Shown: positions 2,161-36,062 of the stretch, in pieces
How the letters are laid out: the number at the start of each line of letters is the position of its first letter
How positions within the stretch are numbered: position 1 is the stretch's first letter
Notes under the pieces: model-generated
Databases searched by the model: none
The model's input: the letters and a program-made list of their open reading frames with translations, nothing else
What the model was told of the DNA's origin: nothing
IMG/VR virus record: IMGVR_UViG_2718218098_000005
Coordinates: 1-40,480 of that record
Strand: one strand, 5' to 3'
From: a virus
Lineage: Duplodnaviria; Heunggongvirae; Uroviricota; Caudoviricetes
DNA: 40,480 nt
Program-made: the position numbers and the translations under genes

Positions 2161-2760
2161 TCAGAATTTATAACCGACACCCACGATGAAACTGTTGGTA
2201 CGCCAGTCACCGCTGCCGGAGCCTTCATAAGCGACGTCAACGGCCACGGATTCGGTCGGGTTAAACTGCACGCCAGCTCCCCACGCCAGAGACGTGTTGC
2301 TGTGGCGACCGTCATCACTTCCGGTCAGCACATCGTGCGTTTTCCCCTTGTTGTCAGTTACGCGGATATAATCTCCGGAGAAAGTCGAAACACGGCTGTA
2401 AGCCATACCCGCCATCGCATACGCGCTGAACCATTCATTCACGCGCACAGACGGCCCCGCCATCACGCTGAACCAGCGGTTACGCACGGAATCTTCATGC
2501 CAGCGGGTATCGCTGTGATGCGTTTTTTGCTCATCTTCAGCGTTGGCATAACTGAATGACGTAATCAGCCCCAGCGTGTCCGTAAACTCATAACGGTATT
2601 TCACGTTAATCCCGTTCAGATTATCGCTGCCGGGAGCGTTCGTACGGGCATGAAGATACCCTGCGCTCAGTGTGGCCTGCTGCTCAGACGCCCATGCAGG
2701 CGCACCGGATACGGCCAGACAGATGGCTGCGGACAAAATGGCTGCACAAACTTTACGCAT
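2161..2760 (-). CDS. lom: Lom outer membrane protein (Ail/Lom family), 199 aa
   Basis: Near-identical to lambda Lom N-terminus [22 protein letters not shown] (signal peptide) and beta-barrel body; position after J. Confidence 0.92.
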
Positions 2761-2784
2761 AATTACCTCTCGCTTTTCTGCAAT

Positions 2785-2808
2785 AAAAAAGGCGCCATTT
2801 CTGGCGCC
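2785..2808 (-). terminator. Hairpin plus U-run between J and lom
   Basis: Minus strand GGCGCCAGAAATGGCGCC followed by TTTTTTATTG, 20 nt upstream of lom ATG. Confidence 0.5.
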
Positions 2809-2827
2809 CGTATATGGGGTATAAAAT

Positions 2828-5800
2828 TCAGCTGATACTGATGCCTGCGGTGGCTTTCTTCATCACCACAACCAGCAAATCACTGATACTTGCTGTGGGA
2901 TACCAGTCATTTACCAGCCATGCTGACACCGAAAACTCCAGCGTCATGTGACCGTGACCGGCAGGCATATCAATAACGCCACTGTAAATCAGCGTATTAT
3001 CCAGCGCGGTACGGTTATAAATTTCAGCACCGTTTTTCCGCACTATCAGACGGCATGAGGAGTAAATATCAGTATGCTCTCTCTCATGTTTAGCGCCGCT
3101 GAATGCCACCGCCGGAATAACAATCTGCCGGTCAAACGGCTGATTGTCATAAACCCTGACGGTAATGGTCCCTGATGGCCACCGTTCCGGTGCACGGGAG
3201 TCCCGGGGGAAAGCTTTGCCCACGGTTTTAACGAGATCACCTTCAATCTGGTTCGCGGACAGTTTTCCCAGAACCCGACAGTTCTCGTTAATCGTGACGT
3301 TGTTGAGCGTCCCGGCGTTCGCATTCACGTTACCGCTGATATCCGCATTTTTCGCCGTCAGCCGCCCATCCGGTGTCAGGGAAAATGCCGGAGGATGACC
3401 ACCACTGGTAATGGTGGGGGCCGTCAGGCGCTTCAGGAACACGTCGTTCATGAATATCTGGTTGCCCTGCGCCACAAACATCGGCGTTTCATTCCCGTTT
3501 GCCGGGTCAATAAACGCGATACGGTTAGCGGCAACCAGAAACTGACTCACCGTGTCCTCCATGCTGAGGCCAATACCCGCGACATAATGTCTGCCGTCTC
3601 TGGTCTGCTCAATTTTGACGCCCCACATGACATTCCATTTATCACTGGCGTCCTTCCACGCTTTCGAAAACTCCTCCAGTCTGCTGGCGTTATCCTCTGT
3701 CAGCTCGACTTTTTCCAGCAGCTCCTTGCCGAGATGGGATTCGGTTATCAGGCCTTTGAAAAAATCCAGGTAACCTTCGGCATCATCGCTCGCCCGACCG
3801 ACAGCCTCCACGAATGTCGATTTGCCGACGGTGTTCACACTGCGGATATAAAAGTAATAATCACGACCCGGTTTGATATTGATACTGGCGGCTATCCAGT
3901 ACAGCGCCGTACCAAGATAGCGGGCTGTGGTTTCAACCTGCCTGATATCCGCAATCCGTTTTTCCGAGAACCAGAACTCAAACTGTACCGTCGGATCATA
4001 AACCGCAAGATGCGGCGTGGCGGTTATCTGAAAATAGCCCGGCGTCAGCTCAATCCTCGACGGTGCTGCCGGTGCGGCAATCCGGAACGATACCGACGCC
4101 GGATCGCCCCGCTGCCCCCACGCATTTACCGCCCGGACCGTCAGCGTGTAACGCCCCAGCGCCAGCTGCCTGAAGCGGTATGTGGTTTCCGTCGTCCTGG
4201 CTGTACTGACCAGCCGCTCACTGCCGTCGTCCGCTGTTACGGTCAGGCGAAGCATAAAGCTCACCCCCTTCACCACCTTCGGTGTGTCCCAGCGCGCCAG
4301 CACCTGATATTCCCCGCTGTCTGCAGTGACTTCTGCGGTCAGGTGCTGCACCGCTGGCGGCGTGACACCATTCACCGTGCCGCTCTGGTCGCCGTCAAAG
4401 TGCGCCCCGTTATCCACGATGGCCTCTTTTTCCGGTACATGCTGCACGGCGGTGATGGCATACGTGCCGTCGTCGTTCTCACGGATACTCACGCAGCGGA
4501 ACAGGCGCTGGCGCAGCGTCGGCAGCTTCAGCCCCCACACGCTGTATTCAGCAACGCCGTCAGGAACCCGGCTCACTTTCACCTTCACGCCGTCGGTGAC
4601 GGACTGAACCTCCACGCTGACCGGATTGCCATTTCCGTCAACCAGGCTTATCAGCGTGGTGCCGGAGGATGGCAGCGTGATTTCACGGTCGAGCGTCAGC
4701 GTCCGGGTCTGGCTGTTCACCGCCAGCACGCGACCACCGGTGCTGATACCGGCATAGTCATCATCGCAGATTTCAATGACATCGCCCGGTACATGGCGAA
4801 GCCCTTCGGCACCCACGCTGAAGTCCACGGTCTGCGTTTCCAGCAGCTCCGTTTTAATCAGCCACAGCCCGGCGCGGTGCGCCTGCCCCCGGCTGGTACA
4901 GCCAAAGGCATCCATCTTCGTGACGTTACGACCGTAACGGGCAATGGCCTGCGTGTCCTCCACAAGCTCTGTCGCCGTCTGCCAGCCGTTGTCCGGGTCA
5001 ATCCAGTTCACCTCAACGGCATTATGGCGGTCCTTCAGGGCGCTGAAGCTGTAGCGGAACGGCGCGCCATCCTCCGGCATCACCACATTACTGCGGTTAT
5101 AGGTCCACACCTTATCCGACGGCCGGTCCTGCACGAACGTCAGCGTCTGCCCGTTCCATACCGGCATACAGCGCATCGCCGAGCAGAAATCACTGAGCAC
5201 ATCCCACGCCTTACGCTGCGTGGTCAGCCACGCATTACAGGTGATGCGCGGCTCCGTGCCGCCAGAGCCGTCCGGCACTGACTGGTCGCAGTACTGGCCG
5301 ATGGCGTACAGCGCCCATTTGTCCACGTCCGCCGCGCCAAGACGTTTCCCCATACCGTAGCGCGGGTGGGTCAGCATATCCCACAGACACCAGGCCGGGT
5401 TGTCACTGTATGCCGGTTTGAGGGTGCCGTCCCAGATACCGCTGTATTGCCGTGTCTGCGGGTTATAGTTCGACGGCACCTGCAGAATACGCCCACGGAA
5501 ATGGTAAGTGCGGCTCACCTGCTGGCTGCCGAACTGCTCCGAATCCACCTGCACGCCGACCAGTGCCGTGTTCGGGTGGCATTGTTTCACATCGATGATT
5601 TCGGTGTATGACGACCAGAGCGTTTTGTTCTGCAGCTGGTCTGTGGTGCTGTCCGGCGTCAGCCTGCGCATCCGGATATTAAACGGGCGCGGCGGCAGGT
5701 TACCCACCACCACCGAGGCCAGATACTGTGAGGTGGTTTTTCCCTTAATGGTGATGTCTTTTTCCGTCACCCAGCCACCGTTACGTTGTATCTGAACCAG

Positions 5801-22575: not shown

Positions 22576-22851
22576 TCACCTCCGGAATGAAAGGATTTTT
22601 GAAACGTTCCCGCGTGCGCGTATTACCAGCACGCAGAACAGCAGATTAAGCCCCACCGCCAGCCAGTTCGCCGCTAACGGGCGACCGCACAGATAGCTGA
22701 GTGGTGCAAAGGCATACAGCAGCATCAGCAGCCAGGCCAGCCATGACATCAGCGGTTTGTGTCTGGAATCACGGCGACGATAAAAAAAGAGCGTCAGCAC
22801 GATAACCGTGCATAACGCTACATTCAGCAATCCGGGAATGTTACTTAACAT
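22576..22851 (-). CDS. Membrane protein (91 aa, 2-3 TM), holin/antiholin-like
   Basis: ATG 22851 with GGAGGAGG 5 nt upstream; hydrophobic segments; between holin-like gene and endolysin. Confidence 0.6.
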   Translation of the reverse strand: MLSNIPGLLNVALCTVIVLTLFFYRRRDSRHKPLMSWLAWLLMLLYAFAPLSYLCGRPLAANWLAVGLNLLFCVLVIRARGNVSKILSFRR

Positions 22852-23233
22852 TGCCGCCTCCTCCACCCCGCAGACGGGAGAACAGGCCGGACACCAGTGA
22901 TGCAATATCCTGCTGGTGGATGAACGAGAGAATCTTCACCGACACCACTGACACCAGCACTGCACACAGTGCGTCGACAGGCGCACCGTCAAACCCTGTA
23001 TGCTTTACCAGCCAGGATGCCAGAACCTCTGCGCCCAGCACGCCGATAATGAACGACACCAGAAAATGCGCCGCCACACGCCAGGCTGAAAGCGCCTGCG
23101 GCATCGTTGCCACAAATAACGCCCCGGCGAACGCACCAAACACAATCCCGAAATCCGTTCCGGTAAACAGCCCGAATACCGTCGCCCCGCCGAGCGCCAC
23201 AGCCGTGCCGGAACCGGATAAGGGTTCAGACAT
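22841..23233 (-). CDS. Putative holin (130 aa, Gly/Ala-rich TM segments)
   Basis: ATG 23233 (MSEPLSG) with AGGAG 8 nt upstream; first gene after terminator; multiple TM segments. Confidence 0.6.
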   Translation of the reverse strand: MSEPLSGSGTAVALGGATVFGLFTGTDFGIVFGAFAGALFVATMPQALSAWRVAAHFLVSFIIGVLGAEVLASWLVKHTGFDGAPVDALCAVLVSVVSVKILSFIHQQDIASLVSGLFSRLRGGGGGNVK

Positions 23234-23250
23234 ACTTTTTTCTCCTGTAA

Positions 23251-23274
23251 ATAAAAAAGGGCCACCAGCGGCCC
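23251..23274 (-). terminator. Intrinsic terminator immediately upstream of lysis genes (tR'-like)
   Basis: Minus strand GGGCCGCTGGTGGCCC followed by TTTTTTATTT, then RBS and holin ATG. Confidence 0.6.
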
Positions 23275-23553
23275 GTAAAAAACACCCCGTCAAAAGCACC
23301 GGCATCCGCAGATGCCCTTTGCGTGGCGTTATTTGATGCGCGCCAGATGTGGCGCAAAGAAATGAAATAAGACTTATCGGAAATTAAGGTTAATTTGAGG
23401 ATTTAAACCACTTCTGAAGCTTAGTAGTATGAACATGTCCCCGGAAGGGGGCCAATACTTATTATTCTTCATGGACTTTGTCCCGCGGTCTTAATCCGAC
23501 GACCGCGCTACTTTTCACCCTCTCGCAAATTGCTATCCAAAGGACGTTGTCCC

Positions 23554-23586
23554 ACGAGTATTCCTGGATGCTCGTGTCTTTTTTTG
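23554..23586 (+). terminator. Plus-strand hairpin + T-run (weak terminator candidate)
   Basis: CACGAG-12 nt-CTCGTG followed by TCTTTTTTTG. Confidence 0.35.
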
Positions 23587-23601
23587 TCCTGAGAAAGGAA
23601 T

Positions 23602-23627
23602 AAAAAAAACCGCCATATCTGGCGGTT
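23602..23627 (-). terminator. Intrinsic terminator within ORF-free region between tRNAs and lysis genes
   Basis: Minus strand AACCGCCAGATATGGCGGTT followed by TTTTTTTT. Confidence 0.55.
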
Positions 23628-23990
23628 GGTCAATGCAAGGGATGAATTTTTTAATTGTTATTAAACCGAGGCGTCGGGTGCCTCCCGAAGTATTCCGTGC
23701 TGTATGGATACTGTGGTTTCCCGCTAAACCGACTCTTTAAACCACCCTCGCTCTGAGGTGCGCCTCTTTGGTGCGATTTACAACACCAGAATGATGCATC
23801 ACCGACCCTGCCAGGAAATACAAAATCTCCACCGATAATGCACCATTCTGCTGTCGTAAAAAAATCAGCACTGAGGCTACACCTGGTCTCAAATCATAGC
23901 CAGAGAACAGAATGCTTTTTCAAAACAACCTGCTCCCACGTAATAAAAAATACGCCAGTGCCGCAATACAATAAGGCTTGTTTCAAATGC

Positions 23991-24065
<75 letters not shown>

Positions 24066-24068
24066 ATA

Positions 24069-24144
<76 letters not shown>

Positions 24145-24146
24145 AC

Positions 24147-24223
24147 TGGACCGCCACCGGGGACTCGAACCTCGCACACTCAACTTAAAGTGTTGACGCT
24201 CTTTCCTGATGAACTAGTAGCGG
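24147..24223 (-). tRNA. tRNA-like, probable anticodon TTT (Lys) with C33
   Basis: Acceptor CCGCTAC/GTGGCGG, 5-bp anticodon stem TCAAC/GTTGA, loop ACTTTAA, T-loop TTCGAGT, CCA encoded. Confidence 0.5.
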
Positions 24224-24224
24224 T

Positions 24225-24300
24225 TGGTGGCCCTGGCTGGATTTGAACCAGCGACCTGGCGATTATGAGTCGCTCGCTCTCACCACTGAGCTAAAGGGCC
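24225..24300 (-). tRNA. tRNA-Ile2-like (anticodon CAT; ileX/ileZ type)
   Basis: Strong similarity by recollection to E. coli ileX; anticodon loop CTCATAA; CCA encoded. Confidence 0.8.
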
Positions 24301-24308
24301 GGCGCAAG

Positions 24309-24337
24309 ATAATAACGTTACGAAATCAATGTAGCAA
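24309..24337 (-). promoter_or_regulatory. Candidate sigma70 promoter for the tRNA cluster
   Basis: Minus strand TTGCTA-17 nt-TATTAT, ending 8 nt before first tRNA. Confidence 0.4.
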
Positions 24338-24413
24338 GCATTCAAAAATCACCTGGTTAAAAATCACCCTTATCTCCTCCACCAGCGCATTCACCATGTC
24401 TATCCGAGATAAG

Positions 24414-24443
24414 TGGCACAAACAAAACCCGCTTGTGGGCGGG
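24414..24443 (-). terminator. Hairpin + U-rich tail just downstream of Q-like gene (candidate tR')
   Basis: Minus strand AAAACCCGCCCACAAGCGGGTTTTGTTTGTGCC. Confidence 0.5.
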
Positions 24444-24498
24444 TTTTGTTTGCTTTTGCCATCACGTACAAAATCGGCAAAATATCAGATTTGCATGA

Positions 24499-24527
24499 AA
24501 TATATGCCTTTCAATCTACTTTTGCAA
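24499..24527 (-). promoter_or_regulatory. Candidate late promoter overlapping 3' end of Q-like gene
   Basis: Minus strand TTGCAA-17 nt-TATATT; Q stop codon lies between the two hexamers. Confidence 0.4.
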
Positions 24528-25200
24528 CACTTTGCTTTGAAAATACCGCCTTTTGTTTTGAACGTGTTCTCATTACAAACAATAAAGCCTCACTATCCAG
24601 TCGGTGAAAAATGTGTTTCAATGCAACCCAGTGACGAGTAAATGTTTTGGACCAGTTTTTAGTTGTCACTCCCGCCAGTAATGCCAGCTCCTGGTATTCA
24701 TAACCTTCCCCACCAAAAAGTTCTGCTTTTACTGCCTGCGCCGCCAGCCAGATTAATTTTTTCAGGCGTTCCTGCGTTTTCCCTGCAATTTTTCTGGTAC
24801 CGGGTTGAGTATTAAATTCATTCCACGCCCACTGTGTTATCGCGATCTGATATGCCCAACAAATATTCCCGCTGTAACACCACAGCAACCAGGCTTTATG
24901 ATGTTCTTCAAGAGACAGAACAGCCCGCCGCCACGATGATGTCGAAAACTCAACCGGACTGACCAGAGGAATTGACGTCCCCTTCGCCAGCGATTGCTTC
25001 CCCGGGATTGGTGGATTATCCCGCGTTATCATTTTTCCAGTCGCTTCATCGCGGTACCGGATTTTTTTTCGCCTGTAACGCCCTGTATCGAACATGGCAT
25101 TCTCTTGCCAGGCTTCAAGCTGACCTTTTGTTGCCGCACTCAAATCAGCGGTAGCGATAATGAGCTGCTCACGCACAAACTGTAAATACTGGTTATTCAT
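24511..25200 (-). CDS. Putative late antiterminator Q (QuuQ-like)
   Basis: 229 aa; position between rusA and late promoter/lysis region as in Qin; ATGA overlap with rusA stop; family not verified. Confidence 0.55.
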   Translation of the reverse strand: MNNQYLQFVREQLIIATADLSAATKGQLEAWQENAMFDTGRYRRKKIRYRDEATGKMITRDNPPIPGKQSLAKGTSIPLVSPVEFSTSSWRRAVLSLEEHHKAWLLWCYSGNICWAYQIAITQWAWNEFNTQPGTRKIAGKTQERLKKLIWLAAQAVKAELFGGEGYEYQELALLAGVTTKNWSKTFTRHWVALKHIFHRLDSEALLFVMRTRSKQKAVFSKQSVAKVD

Positions 25201-25556
25201 GCGCACTCCAGTTCTGTGATTTTTATCCCCAGCCGCCCACCAGGAACGAGCTGACCGCGCACAATATTGATTTCATCAAACTGCTCGTCGTCTATAAGTA
25301 GTCCGGCATGCGTCAGCGCATCCAGTGGTGCCTTCAGGATATTGTCCAGGTCACGACGGCGCTTATCCGGCGGCTCTGCAATAATTTTTATTGCCAGCCT
25401 TCCGGACAGGTTTAATTTCAGCCGCTGCTGGCGAACAATAAGTGCCACATCCCGGCGATAACGCTCACCGGCTTTTGATACAAAATATGTGCTGCCACGA
25501 CGACGCCAGTAGGTGTTCACCGTCGGCGGGTAAGGCAAAACAAACTCTATACGCAT
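25197..25556 (-). CDS. rusA: RusA Holliday junction resolvase
   Basis: MRIEFVLPYPPTVNTYW..RRRDLDN..GGRLGIKITE closely parallels E. coli RusA motifs. Confidence 0.9.
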   Translation of the reverse strand: MRIEFVLPYPPTVNTYWRRRGSTYFVSKAGERYRRDVALIVRQQRLKLNLSGRLAIKIIAEPPDKRRRDLDNILKAPLDALTHAGLLIDDEQFDEINIVRGQLVPGGRLGIKITELECA

Positions 25557-27388: not shown

Positions 27389-27544
27389 TTACTCCTCAGG
27401 TTCGTAAGCTGTGAAGACAGCGACCTCCGTCTGGCCGGTTCGGATTCGTACCTCGCAGAGGTCTTTCCTCGTTACCAGTGCTGTCACTATGACGGTTAAA
27501 CAGATGACGATCAGGGCGATTAACATCGCCTTTTGCTGCTTCAT
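27389..27544 (-). CDS. hokD: Hok/Gef family type I toxin (HokD/RelF-like, 51 aa)
   Basis: MKQQKAMLIALIVICLTVIVTALVTRKDLCEVRIRTGQTEVAVFTAYEPEE matches HokD by recollection; single TM + conserved Cys. Confidence 0.85.
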   Translation of the reverse strand: MKQQKAMLIALIVICLTVIVTALVTRKDLCEVRIRTGQTEVAVFTAYEPEE

Positions 27545-27732
27545 AGCCTGCTTCTCCTTGACCTCTCGGTCCGTAAGAGGCAATCTATATGTGACGAGCA
27601 TATAGGGGCCTCACTTCGATTTATAGTCGGGTGGGGCTTTTATCTATCTGCCTTTGGTGTTCATGCCTGAGGCAGATAGCCTCAAGCACCCGCAGCAATT
27701 CTACTTAACTCTCCTTTTCCCGCAAACCGTTT

Positions 27733-36005: not shown

Positions 36006-36062
36006 TTTCTGGTGACGTTTGGCGGTATCAGTTTTACTCCGTGACTGCTCTGCCGCCCTTTT
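36006..36062 (+). ncRNA. dicF: DicF small RNA (ftsZ-targeting sRNA)
   Basis: TTTCTGGTGACGTTTGGCGGTATCAGTTTTACTCCGTGACTGCTCTGCCGCCCTTTTT matches E. coli DicF by recollection incl. terminator hairpin; located just upstream of dicB. Confidence 0.85.

Follow-up and report, generated by a model that had tools for sequence, protein, structure and literature searches.

What occupies the gap between the transfer RNA (tRNA) genes and the lysis genes of a lambdoid prophage in which no protein appears to be encoded? The question is raised by IMG/VR record IMGVR_UViG_2718218098_000005, a Caudoviricetes sequence of 40,480 nucleotides (nt) that is called the window here; all positions refer to it. The window contains a lambdoid prophage whose late genes are on the minus strand, and the segment in question lies downstream of pR'/tR' and of a tRNA cluster. 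Its sequence is 100% identical in Escherichia coli strain M19. We propose, with a probability of about 0.6, that the leader of the late operon has, in this segment, a conserved RNA island free of protein genes, located at the moron (cargo) site between Q, pR' and the tRNAs on one side and the lysis genes on the other. Predicted structures suggest that two candidate small RNA (sRNA) units, S1 on the sense (minus) strand and A1 on the plus strand, probably form a convergent pair in this island.

The gap extends from the holin start to tRNA-Gly (23234-23990) and measures about 757 base pairs (bp), slightly more than the ~650 bp given in the initial annotation. The latter was right that no open reading frame (ORF) of at least 60 amino acids (aa) is present in 23234-23990; the longest ORFs have 54, 51, 44, 41 and 41 aa. 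Hairpin density is above chance. There are four terminator-like sites per 757 nt, compared to 0.8±0.8 in dinucleotide shuffles, and fold z-scores reach -5.7 (23858-23965, minus), -7.9 (23772-23862, minus) and -4.8 (23437-23585, plus). For 23995-23770, RNAalifold gave -71.9 kcal/mol on the minus strand and -22.7 kcal/mol on the plus strand. A terminator scan recovered both minus-strand terminators of the initial annotation (23627-23608 followed by T8, and 23274-23259 followed by T6) as well as its plus-strand terminator (23553-23576 followed by TCTTTTTTT). Two further stems mentioned there were also located: GGCATCCGCAGATGCC forms a weaker minus-strand terminator-like site (23316-23301), and CGCGGTC..GACCGCG lies at 23484-23507. 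Loss of the stems among related prophages had been named, along with missing transcripts, as the outcome that would speak against structured RNA or regulatory signals; the stems are indeed kept, with compensatory changes. The predicted elements are as follows.

23858..23964, minus strand: D1, a four-way junction with an 8-bp closing stem (GGCACUGG/..CAGUGCU) around three hairpins, followed by U7.
23777..23860, minus strand: D2, an imperfect, G·U-rich hairpin of 28 + 6 bp with an invariant apical region, GGUGGAGAUUUUGUAUUUCCUGGCAGGG.
23602..23776, minus strand: S1, a candidate sRNA-like unit ending at T1.
23758-23745, minus strand: hairpin CCUC-AGAGCG-AGGG of S1.
About 23712-23692, minus strand: covarying hairpin of S1.
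23687-23675, minus strand: hairpin GAGGC..GCCUC of S1, with motif CGGGAGGCACCCG.
3' part of S1, minus strand: A/U-rich linker and C/U-rich stretch UCAUCCCUUGCAUUGACC, then T1.
23600..23627, minus strand: T1, predicted intrinsic terminator AACCGCC-AGAU-AUGGCGGUU followed by U8, from the terminator scan.
23437..23585, plus strand: A1, a candidate antisense sRNA with a long form of ~149 nt to T2 and a short form of ~80-85 nt ending after H3'.
23402..23430, plus strand: promoter-like site of A1, TTTAAA-17-TAGTAT, with an inferred start near 23437.
23437-23452, plus strand: 5' hairpin of A1.
23453-23472, plus strand: invariant unpaired 20-nt stretch of A1, CAAUACUUAUUAUUCUUCAU.
23473-23483, plus strand: mini-hairpin of A1, GGACUUUGUCC.
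23484-23507, plus strand: H3', a hairpin of A1 that together with the following U-run forms a predicted terminator.
23553..23585, plus strand: T2, predicted intrinsic terminator CACGAGUAUUCCUGGAUGCUCGUG followed by UCUUUUUUU, from the terminator scan.
23340..23355, minus strand: hairpin GCGCCA-CAUC-UGGCGC, next to the cargo insertion point.
23301..23316, minus strand: hairpin GGCAUC-UGCG-GAUGCC followed by GGUGCUUUUG, a weak terminator-like site.
23249..23274, minus strand: T3, predicted intrinsic terminator GGGCCGCUGGUGGCCC followed by U6AUUU, from the terminator scan, just before the holin ribosome-binding site.

Two sense-strand folds, D1 and D2, are well supported. D1 starts 27 nt past tRNA-Gly and has a minimum free energy (MFE) of -43.2 kcal/mol, with a z-score of -5.7 on the minus strand versus -1.6 on the plus strand. 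D1 variants that were folded singly gave the same architecture, even where all three hairpins are unrelated in sequence, and 98.2% of the cells are paired in alignment A6. A covariance model made from close copies only (R1) recovered divergent copies end to end, with scores of 25-35 bits. In alignment A8, which was fitted to the covariance model and leans towards it, 94.2% of the cells pair and changes on both sides occur in 14 of the 39 pairs, whereas shuffling gave 8.4±1.7 and reached this number in 0 of 500 cases. The comparison shows D1 as a predicted fold of the sense strand only that is kept by selection and carries a U-tract. Its cloverleaf-like shape does not make it a tRNA. ARAGORN and Rfam RF00005 call only the four tRNAs at 23991-24300 and not D1, and we rejected this identity because the arms have 15 and 11 bp, compared to the 5-bp anticodon and T stems of tRNA, and there is no T-loop motif.

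D2 has the same MFE (-43.2 kcal/mol), with a z-score of -7.9. Across 39 distinct sequences, its 34 pairs are 97.3% paired, compared to 35-56% if partners are slid. Five pairs are changed on both sides and the apical 28 nt are invariant. The alignment contains 260 G·U cells in the sense direction versus 15 A·C cells, which indicates that the fold is specific to the minus-strand RNA. D2 is thereby shown as a modeled sense-strand RNA structure kept by selection. Phage T4 also has structured non-tRNA RNAs, species 1 and 2, immediately beside its tRNA genes, with which they are presumably co-transcribed. We know of no function for them. By their position beside tRNA genes D1 and D2 would resemble these RNAs.

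Further downstream, the sense strand was found to have two strong predicted intrinsic terminators, T1 and T3, in addition to the U-tract after D1. In T1, T2 and T3 alike, a G+C-rich hairpin is predicted to precede a U-run on the transcribed strand. The stem of T1 is invariant and its loop variable. T3 ends ~16 nt ahead of the holin start codon, and conservation of its region (23280-23261) is 100%. Of the two hairpins between T1 and T3 on this strand, the one at 23340-23355 has the compensatory variants GCGUC/GACGC and GCGCU/AGCGC as well as G·U variants that pair on the sense strand only. The one at 23301-23316 is partly deleted in divergent copies.

The opposite strand is shown to have its own predicted terminators, H3' with its U-run and T2, which face T1. 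T1 and T2 converge at a distance of 15 nt, and both are conserved. At the position of T2 at least three unrelated stem sequences are found (the window type, the L052/L053 type and L085), each with a plus-strand U-run, and in L054, L063 and L087 the stem has a G·U pair that pairs on the plus strand only. The fold of A1 has an energy of -47.7 kcal/mol (z -4.8 on the plus strand versus -1.1 on the minus strand), and in its MFE structure the invariant 20 nt stay unpaired. Of the A1 cells in alignment A4, 95.2% are paired, with CG<->UA switches numbering 13 versus 9 in the 5' hairpin and 13 versus 13 in H3'. H3' is followed by C(C) and U6-8 in 15 of 26 distinct variants. The A1 block is the best conserved of the whole segment.

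The promoter-like site of A1 has the top position weight matrix score inside the segment (8.9). Of 33 distinct variants, 32 keep its position and spacing; the exception is L085, with a -35 element weakened to TGTAAA. The -10 versions TAGTAT, TAATAT, TAGAAT and TAAAAT differ at hexamer positions 3 and 4 only. With regard to possible targets, pairing of the A1 seed with the holin ribosome-binding site was rejected. The energy of -9.7 kcal/mol is unremarkable among 53 start sites of the window and is reached by 8.8% of shuffles, and the pairing is lost where another holin type follows. A second copy of the A1 target with up to 3 mismatches was not found elsewhere in the window, and a literature search found no paper in which the invariant 19-mer is printed.

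How widespread is this arrangement? Among 5426 complete E. coli genomes, 215 contain at least 80% of the segment, with 78-100% identity, and the whole module occurs in E. coli W (NC_017664, ~1,515,180-1,515,930). In most copies the Prokaryotic Genome Annotation Pipeline (PGAP) annotates no gene at the segment. Only two deposited phage records contain it, vB_EcoS-683R6 and SerU-LTIIb; further copies were found in 46 IMG/VR contigs, in E. ruysiae and in 27 metagenome contigs. Among the copies the segment is joined to differing Q proteins, holins and tRNA sets, and sequence comparison shows it to be a mosaic of separately exchangeable modules.

24149-23777: module a, with tRNA-Thr, tRNA-Gly and ~215 nt.
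23777-23515: module b, variable, with other ~170 nt instead in some copies.
23515-23332: module c, the core, at least 80% covered in 297 genomes.
About 23332: cargo insertion point, fixed, directly after module c.
23332-23246: module d, ending right after T3 regardless of the holin type that follows.

T1 is present in every variant of module b, replaced versions included. The hairpin at 23340-23355 forms the 3' edge of core c, and that at 23301-23316 lies in module d. In relatives, TerB and DUF3927 genes are inserted at ~23332; in L063, L064, L071, L088 and L089 this cargo begins immediately past the hairpin at 23340-23355. The TerB-family and DUF3927 genes between c and d are on the late-gene strand (1895-2469 in L063 and 820-1396 in L088/L089). 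The order of modules can also change. In L085 (strain FDAARGOS_1257) core c lies between Q and a true, full-length STnc100 sRNA gene (129 bits; 1117-1319, minus) that is followed by tRNA-Ile, so core c comes before the tRNA and not after it as in the window.

Some copies have unusual surroundings. In phage SerU-LTIIb (L002) tRNA-Thr/Gly and the non-coding module occur twice in tandem (1202-2003 and 2568-3912), with a holin copy after each; the second module copy is only ~80% identical and has a divergent form of D1. The region 23237-23333, i.e., module d and the first holin bases, is 91% identical over 68 nt to phage phiP27. It is also 86% identical over 97 nt to a record named 'Actinobacillus phage vB_Apl-pPE4', an unexpected host given that the sequence is of E. 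coli type. Core c also occurs in part: its last 45 nt, with the GCGCCA..UGGCGC hairpin, stand alone next to yodB and nleF in many genomes (89% identity), for example at 2501-2545 in L090 (E. coli O103:H2 12009). This isolated end looks like the edge of a prophage remnant.

The genes around the segment define its place in the late operon.

24511-25206: Q protein, first in the late-gene reading direction.
24527-24499, minus strand: candidate pR', TTGCAA-17-TATATT, directly after Q.
24450-24423, minus strand: tR' terminator, upstream of the tRNA genes.
24337-24309, minus strand: second promoter-like site, TTGCTA-17-TATTAT, upstream of the tRNA cluster and the best promoter match of the region.
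24300-23991, minus strand: four tRNA genes, found by ARAGORN and RF00005.
23991-24065: tRNA-Gly, the upstream border of the segment.
23233-23231: holin start codon ATG, as annotated by RefSeq in the identical genome of M19; the genes of two holins and an M15 endolysin run from 23233 downwards.

These positions decide which parts of the regulatory interpretation in the initial annotation can stand. Structured RNA, regulatory signals and a site for cargo are all borne out, the last by the TerB and DUF3927 genes of the relatives. The suggestion that a pR' leader or 6S-type RNA is located here does not hold, as candidate pR' and tR' lie outside the segment, upstream of the tRNA cluster. The Rfam covariance search that had been recommended gave weak isrK/isrJ-type matches at the pR' region only (24415-24527), and no family reached its threshold in the segment.

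Convergent sRNA pairs have been described 3' of pR' in prophages of enterohemorrhagic E. coli, at the moron site (Tree et al., 2014; PMC4104026). Those pairs (AsxR/AgvB and partners) occupy the same place, between Q/pR' and the lysis genes beside cargo, as is evident here from Q (24511-25206), the holin (23233) and the cargo point (~23332). They also consist of one unit on the late-gene strand and one antisense unit with facing Rho-independent terminators, for which T1 and T2 are the predicted counterparts, and related copies hold one part constant and vary another. On the other hand, A1 would be longer (~80-150 nt versus 51-60 nt), and the pair is part of a larger module that also contains tRNA genes, D1 and D2. 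The AgvB (RF02702) and AsxR (RF02703) models gave no match at E values up to 10 in 22800-24700 or in narrower scans.

A second group of related loci is found in enteropathogenic E. coli, where PasA/PasC (antisense) and PasD (sense) are encoded directly upstream of the holin (PMC8550237 Table S6; bioRxiv 10.64898/2026.05.13.724894). The Pas loci adjoin holin-lysozyme genes and share with our locus a neighborhood of Q, RusA, TerB, DUF3927 and tRNA; TerB and DUF3927 are the 'PasA/PasC conserved genes' named in the Pas preprint (bioRxiv 10.64898/2026.05.13.724894). Like A1 as proposed here, PasA and PasC lie antisense to the late operon. Unlike the Pas loci, the window has no sialate esterase gene in this region. 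Comparing PasA, PasA-long, PasC, PasD1 and PasD2 (NC_011601) with the window by blastn (word size 7) gave chance matches of 10-17 nt, the best with an E value of 0.23. Homology to PasA/C/D, AgvB, AsxR and Esr41 was rejected since blastn and Rfam found nothing. Readings as a sigma-54 site, enterobacterial repetitive intergenic consensus (ERIC) or repetitive extragenic palindromic (REP) element or retron were dropped by eye because motifs or spacing do not fit. Judged by sequence, the architecture is the same as in known prophage sRNA pairs and the sequences are not previously described.

For S1, similarity to two known families deserves attention. STnc100 (RF02076), reported as structurally related to PasD, is a sense-oriented prophage sRNA of ~200 nt from the same region as S1. 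Both have the 13-nt motif CGGGAGGCACCCG and a CCYC-NGUGCG-RGGG hairpin in the same order, and both end with a terminator. With the STnc100 model the S1-homologous stretch scored 27.3 bits in L089 and 26.9 bits in L052; scores were 20-27 bits in relatives and 11.5 bits in the window, all below the gathering score of 47. The reciprocal model R2 gave 21 bits with true STnc100, not above background matches. Because of these scores, a relationship of S1 to STnc100/PasD is possible but not established. The sroB/ChiX model (RF00368) aligned full length to S1 (23600-23689, minus) with 31.3 bits, below the gathering score of 44. The last 90 nt of S1 indeed have a ChiX-like order of 5' hairpin, A/U-rich (ARN-like) linker, C/U stretch ending in UUGAC, and terminator with U8. 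Unlike ChiX, which is encoded at a chromosomal locus (chiX), S1 is phage-borne, and it has a different seed sequence. We rejected S1 as a member of STnc100 or ChiX, scores being below threshold (in both directions).

A mechanism can be proposed from these elements. In the lysogen, the promoter-like site at 24337-24309 ahead of the tRNA cluster would give a transcript from which the tRNAs are made and which ends at D1 or T1. S1 would be the 3' part of this transcript and sRNA-like, with its A/U-rich linker, C/U-rich stretch and U8 tail. A1 would start near 23437, stop at H3' or T2, and offer its invariant unpaired 20 nt for base pairing. The partners could be host or phage mRNAs (in trans) or the late transcript (in cis); A1 is complementary to the latter over its full length. 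Expression of holin and endolysin would be blocked at T1 and T3 until RNA polymerase, modified by Q, reads through, and this terminator stack should make the lysis genes strictly Q-dependent. D2, with its near-perfect 28-bp duplex, is a likely processing site for RNase III that would split the tRNA part from the lysis mRNA. A more far-reaching version, in which A1 and S1 are two new, expressed, Hfq-dependent sRNA families of E. coli prophages whose targets in host or phage are set by CUUAUnnUUCUUCA and the C/U stretch before T1, and D1/D2 a new structured-RNA class co-transcribed with phage tRNAs (e.g., a tRNA-shaped stable RNA or decoy plus an RNase III entry site), is tentative and in our opinion doubtful.

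Several observations weigh against an RNA island with an sRNA pair. The promoter match of A1 is weak (8/12) and was not listed by a stricter scan, and its score of 8.9 is reached by 70% of shuffles and is therefore not evidence by itself. The G·U evidence on the A1 hairpins is mixed, with the 5' hairpin favoring the plus strand (19 versus 7) and H3' slightly the minus strand (0 versus 3). No sense-strand promoter for S1 was found, so S1 may arise from the tRNA transcript or be just a 3' trailer, and no known sRNA family reached its own threshold in the segment with the Rfam models. The pair is proposed from sequence and predicted structure, and the roles of D1 and D2 are ones that we infer. 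The covariation rests on few lineages because most sequences come from closely related E. coli prophages, and for D1 the lean of alignment A8 towards its model has to be kept in mind.

In a rival explanation the segment would serve only as insulation and as a recombination linker, with terminators for Q-dependence, conserved flanks for cargo exchange between lambdoid phages by homologous recombination, and no functional RNA. The two strong sense terminators and two antisense ones, the block-wise exchange of modules with cargo at a fixed point, the chance-level promoter score of A1 and the lack of a match to known sRNA families would all agree with this. However, D1 and D2 go beyond simple terminators, and compensatory and G·U-preserving changes have maintained their folds. 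The best-conserved block (23453-23483) is an unpaired stretch and not a stem, and plus-strand terminators would be purposeless unless plus-strand transcription exists. We consider insulation alone rather unlikely. At the other extreme, the ~740 nt from tRNA-Gly to T3 could be one large ornate non-coding RNA linked to tRNAs in the manner of ROOL or GOLLD, for which the many conserved sense hairpins beside prophage tRNA genes and the sense preference of RNAalifold could be quoted. In relatives, however, the modules are replaced, deleted, reordered or split by coding cargo. Such an RNA would also be interrupted by the internal terminators of the sense strand (D1 U-tract and T1), its modules showed no long-range pairing with each other, and Rfam gave no ROOL or GOLLD match. 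This makes a single large RNA very improbable.

Protein-coding explanations were weighed against the same alignments. The sense ORF of 32 codons at 23374..23472 (minus strand; MKNNKYWPPSGDMFILLSFRSGLNPQINLNFR) overlaps A1 and could be a small protein gene repressed by A1 over its start codon, as a type I toxin-antitoxin-like system or a leader ORF. Even copies with only ~75% identity, L085 among them, have the same start and 31-32 codons, and the ORF is open in 26 of 30 distinct DNAs. Its start region coincides with the best-conserved block, A1 would be perfectly complementary to it, and the changes in the -10 hexamer of A1 are synonymous in its frame. Against this, 11 loci have lost the frame through a 1-nt deletion and L066 through a stop codon, and in L088/L089 a 1-nt insertion disrupts it but spares the hairpin. 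Variants are spread over the codon positions (18/15/20), and the 17 synonymous versus 36 non-synonymous changes are the same as in the other five frames. Between the window and L085 there are ~13 non-synonymous and 2 synonymous codons. The peptide is not hydrophobic, the Shine-Dalgarno sequence is weak, and Pfam and PHROGs gave no family match. Without a codon signal and with natural frameshifts, the ORF was rejected as a real gene, and a small protein here is improbable. Least credible is a remnant of former coding cargo. PGAP or the depositors did annotate 'hypothetical proteins' in some copies (e.g., 118 aa in Sx181 and 103 aa in w264), but such ORFs start with GTG, differ between copies and have no conserved frame, and those in Sx181, w264 and 683R6 were rejected as genes. 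None of the translated segment ORFs of at least 30 aa matched Pfam or PHROGs, indels between copies are 1-2 nt and not multiples of three, and conservation tracks stems and unpaired RNA blocks instead of codons. Neither a conserved frame with codon-position bias nor a family match was found for the segment.

If the segment is an RNA island, its relevance extends beyond this prophage. It is an unannotated module in about 4-5% of complete E. coli genomes, including the laboratory strain W and enterotoxigenic, avian pathogenic and Shiga toxin-producing isolates. If expressed, A1 and S1 would add two more families to the growing number of prophage sRNAs that are encoded at the cargo site by the lysis genes and rewire regulation in the host. 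The terminator stack is relevant to how strictly lysis, like toxin or cargo expression in related phages, depends on Q antitermination. D1 and D2 are covariation-supported folds beside phage tRNA genes with no described Rfam counterpart, and they offer a tractable case for what travels with phage tRNA clusters.

Some features around the segment complete the picture. The region 24415-24527 (minus) likely contains the true pR' and a short leader RNA at the '6S RNA' position; the weak Rfam matches there are of the isrK/isrJ/OrzO-P type, with 20-27 bits. Between tR' and the tRNA promoter, CATGGTGAAT (24389-24398, minus) corresponds to the 5' motif of PasD/STnc100 (GCAUGGUGAAUCC). By its sequence it may be what is left of an STnc100-like gene that the tRNA module displaced. 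The -10 region of the promoter-like site at 24337-24309 is also found in front of tRNA-Ile in L085. The tRNAs found by ARAGORN (23991-24337 region, minus) are Met-CAT, Lys-TTT, Thr-TGT and Gly-TCC. In the identical M19 genome PGAP annotates two only, tRNA-Gly and the CAT tRNA, the latter as Ile. The score of tRNA-Lys (33 bits) and several non-canonical pairs in tRNA-Thr suggest that both may be decaying. Known RNAs are also encoded elsewhere in the prophage: the sok antitoxin beside hokD (27542-27691, minus; 107 bits) and DicF (36007-36058, plus; 77 bits).

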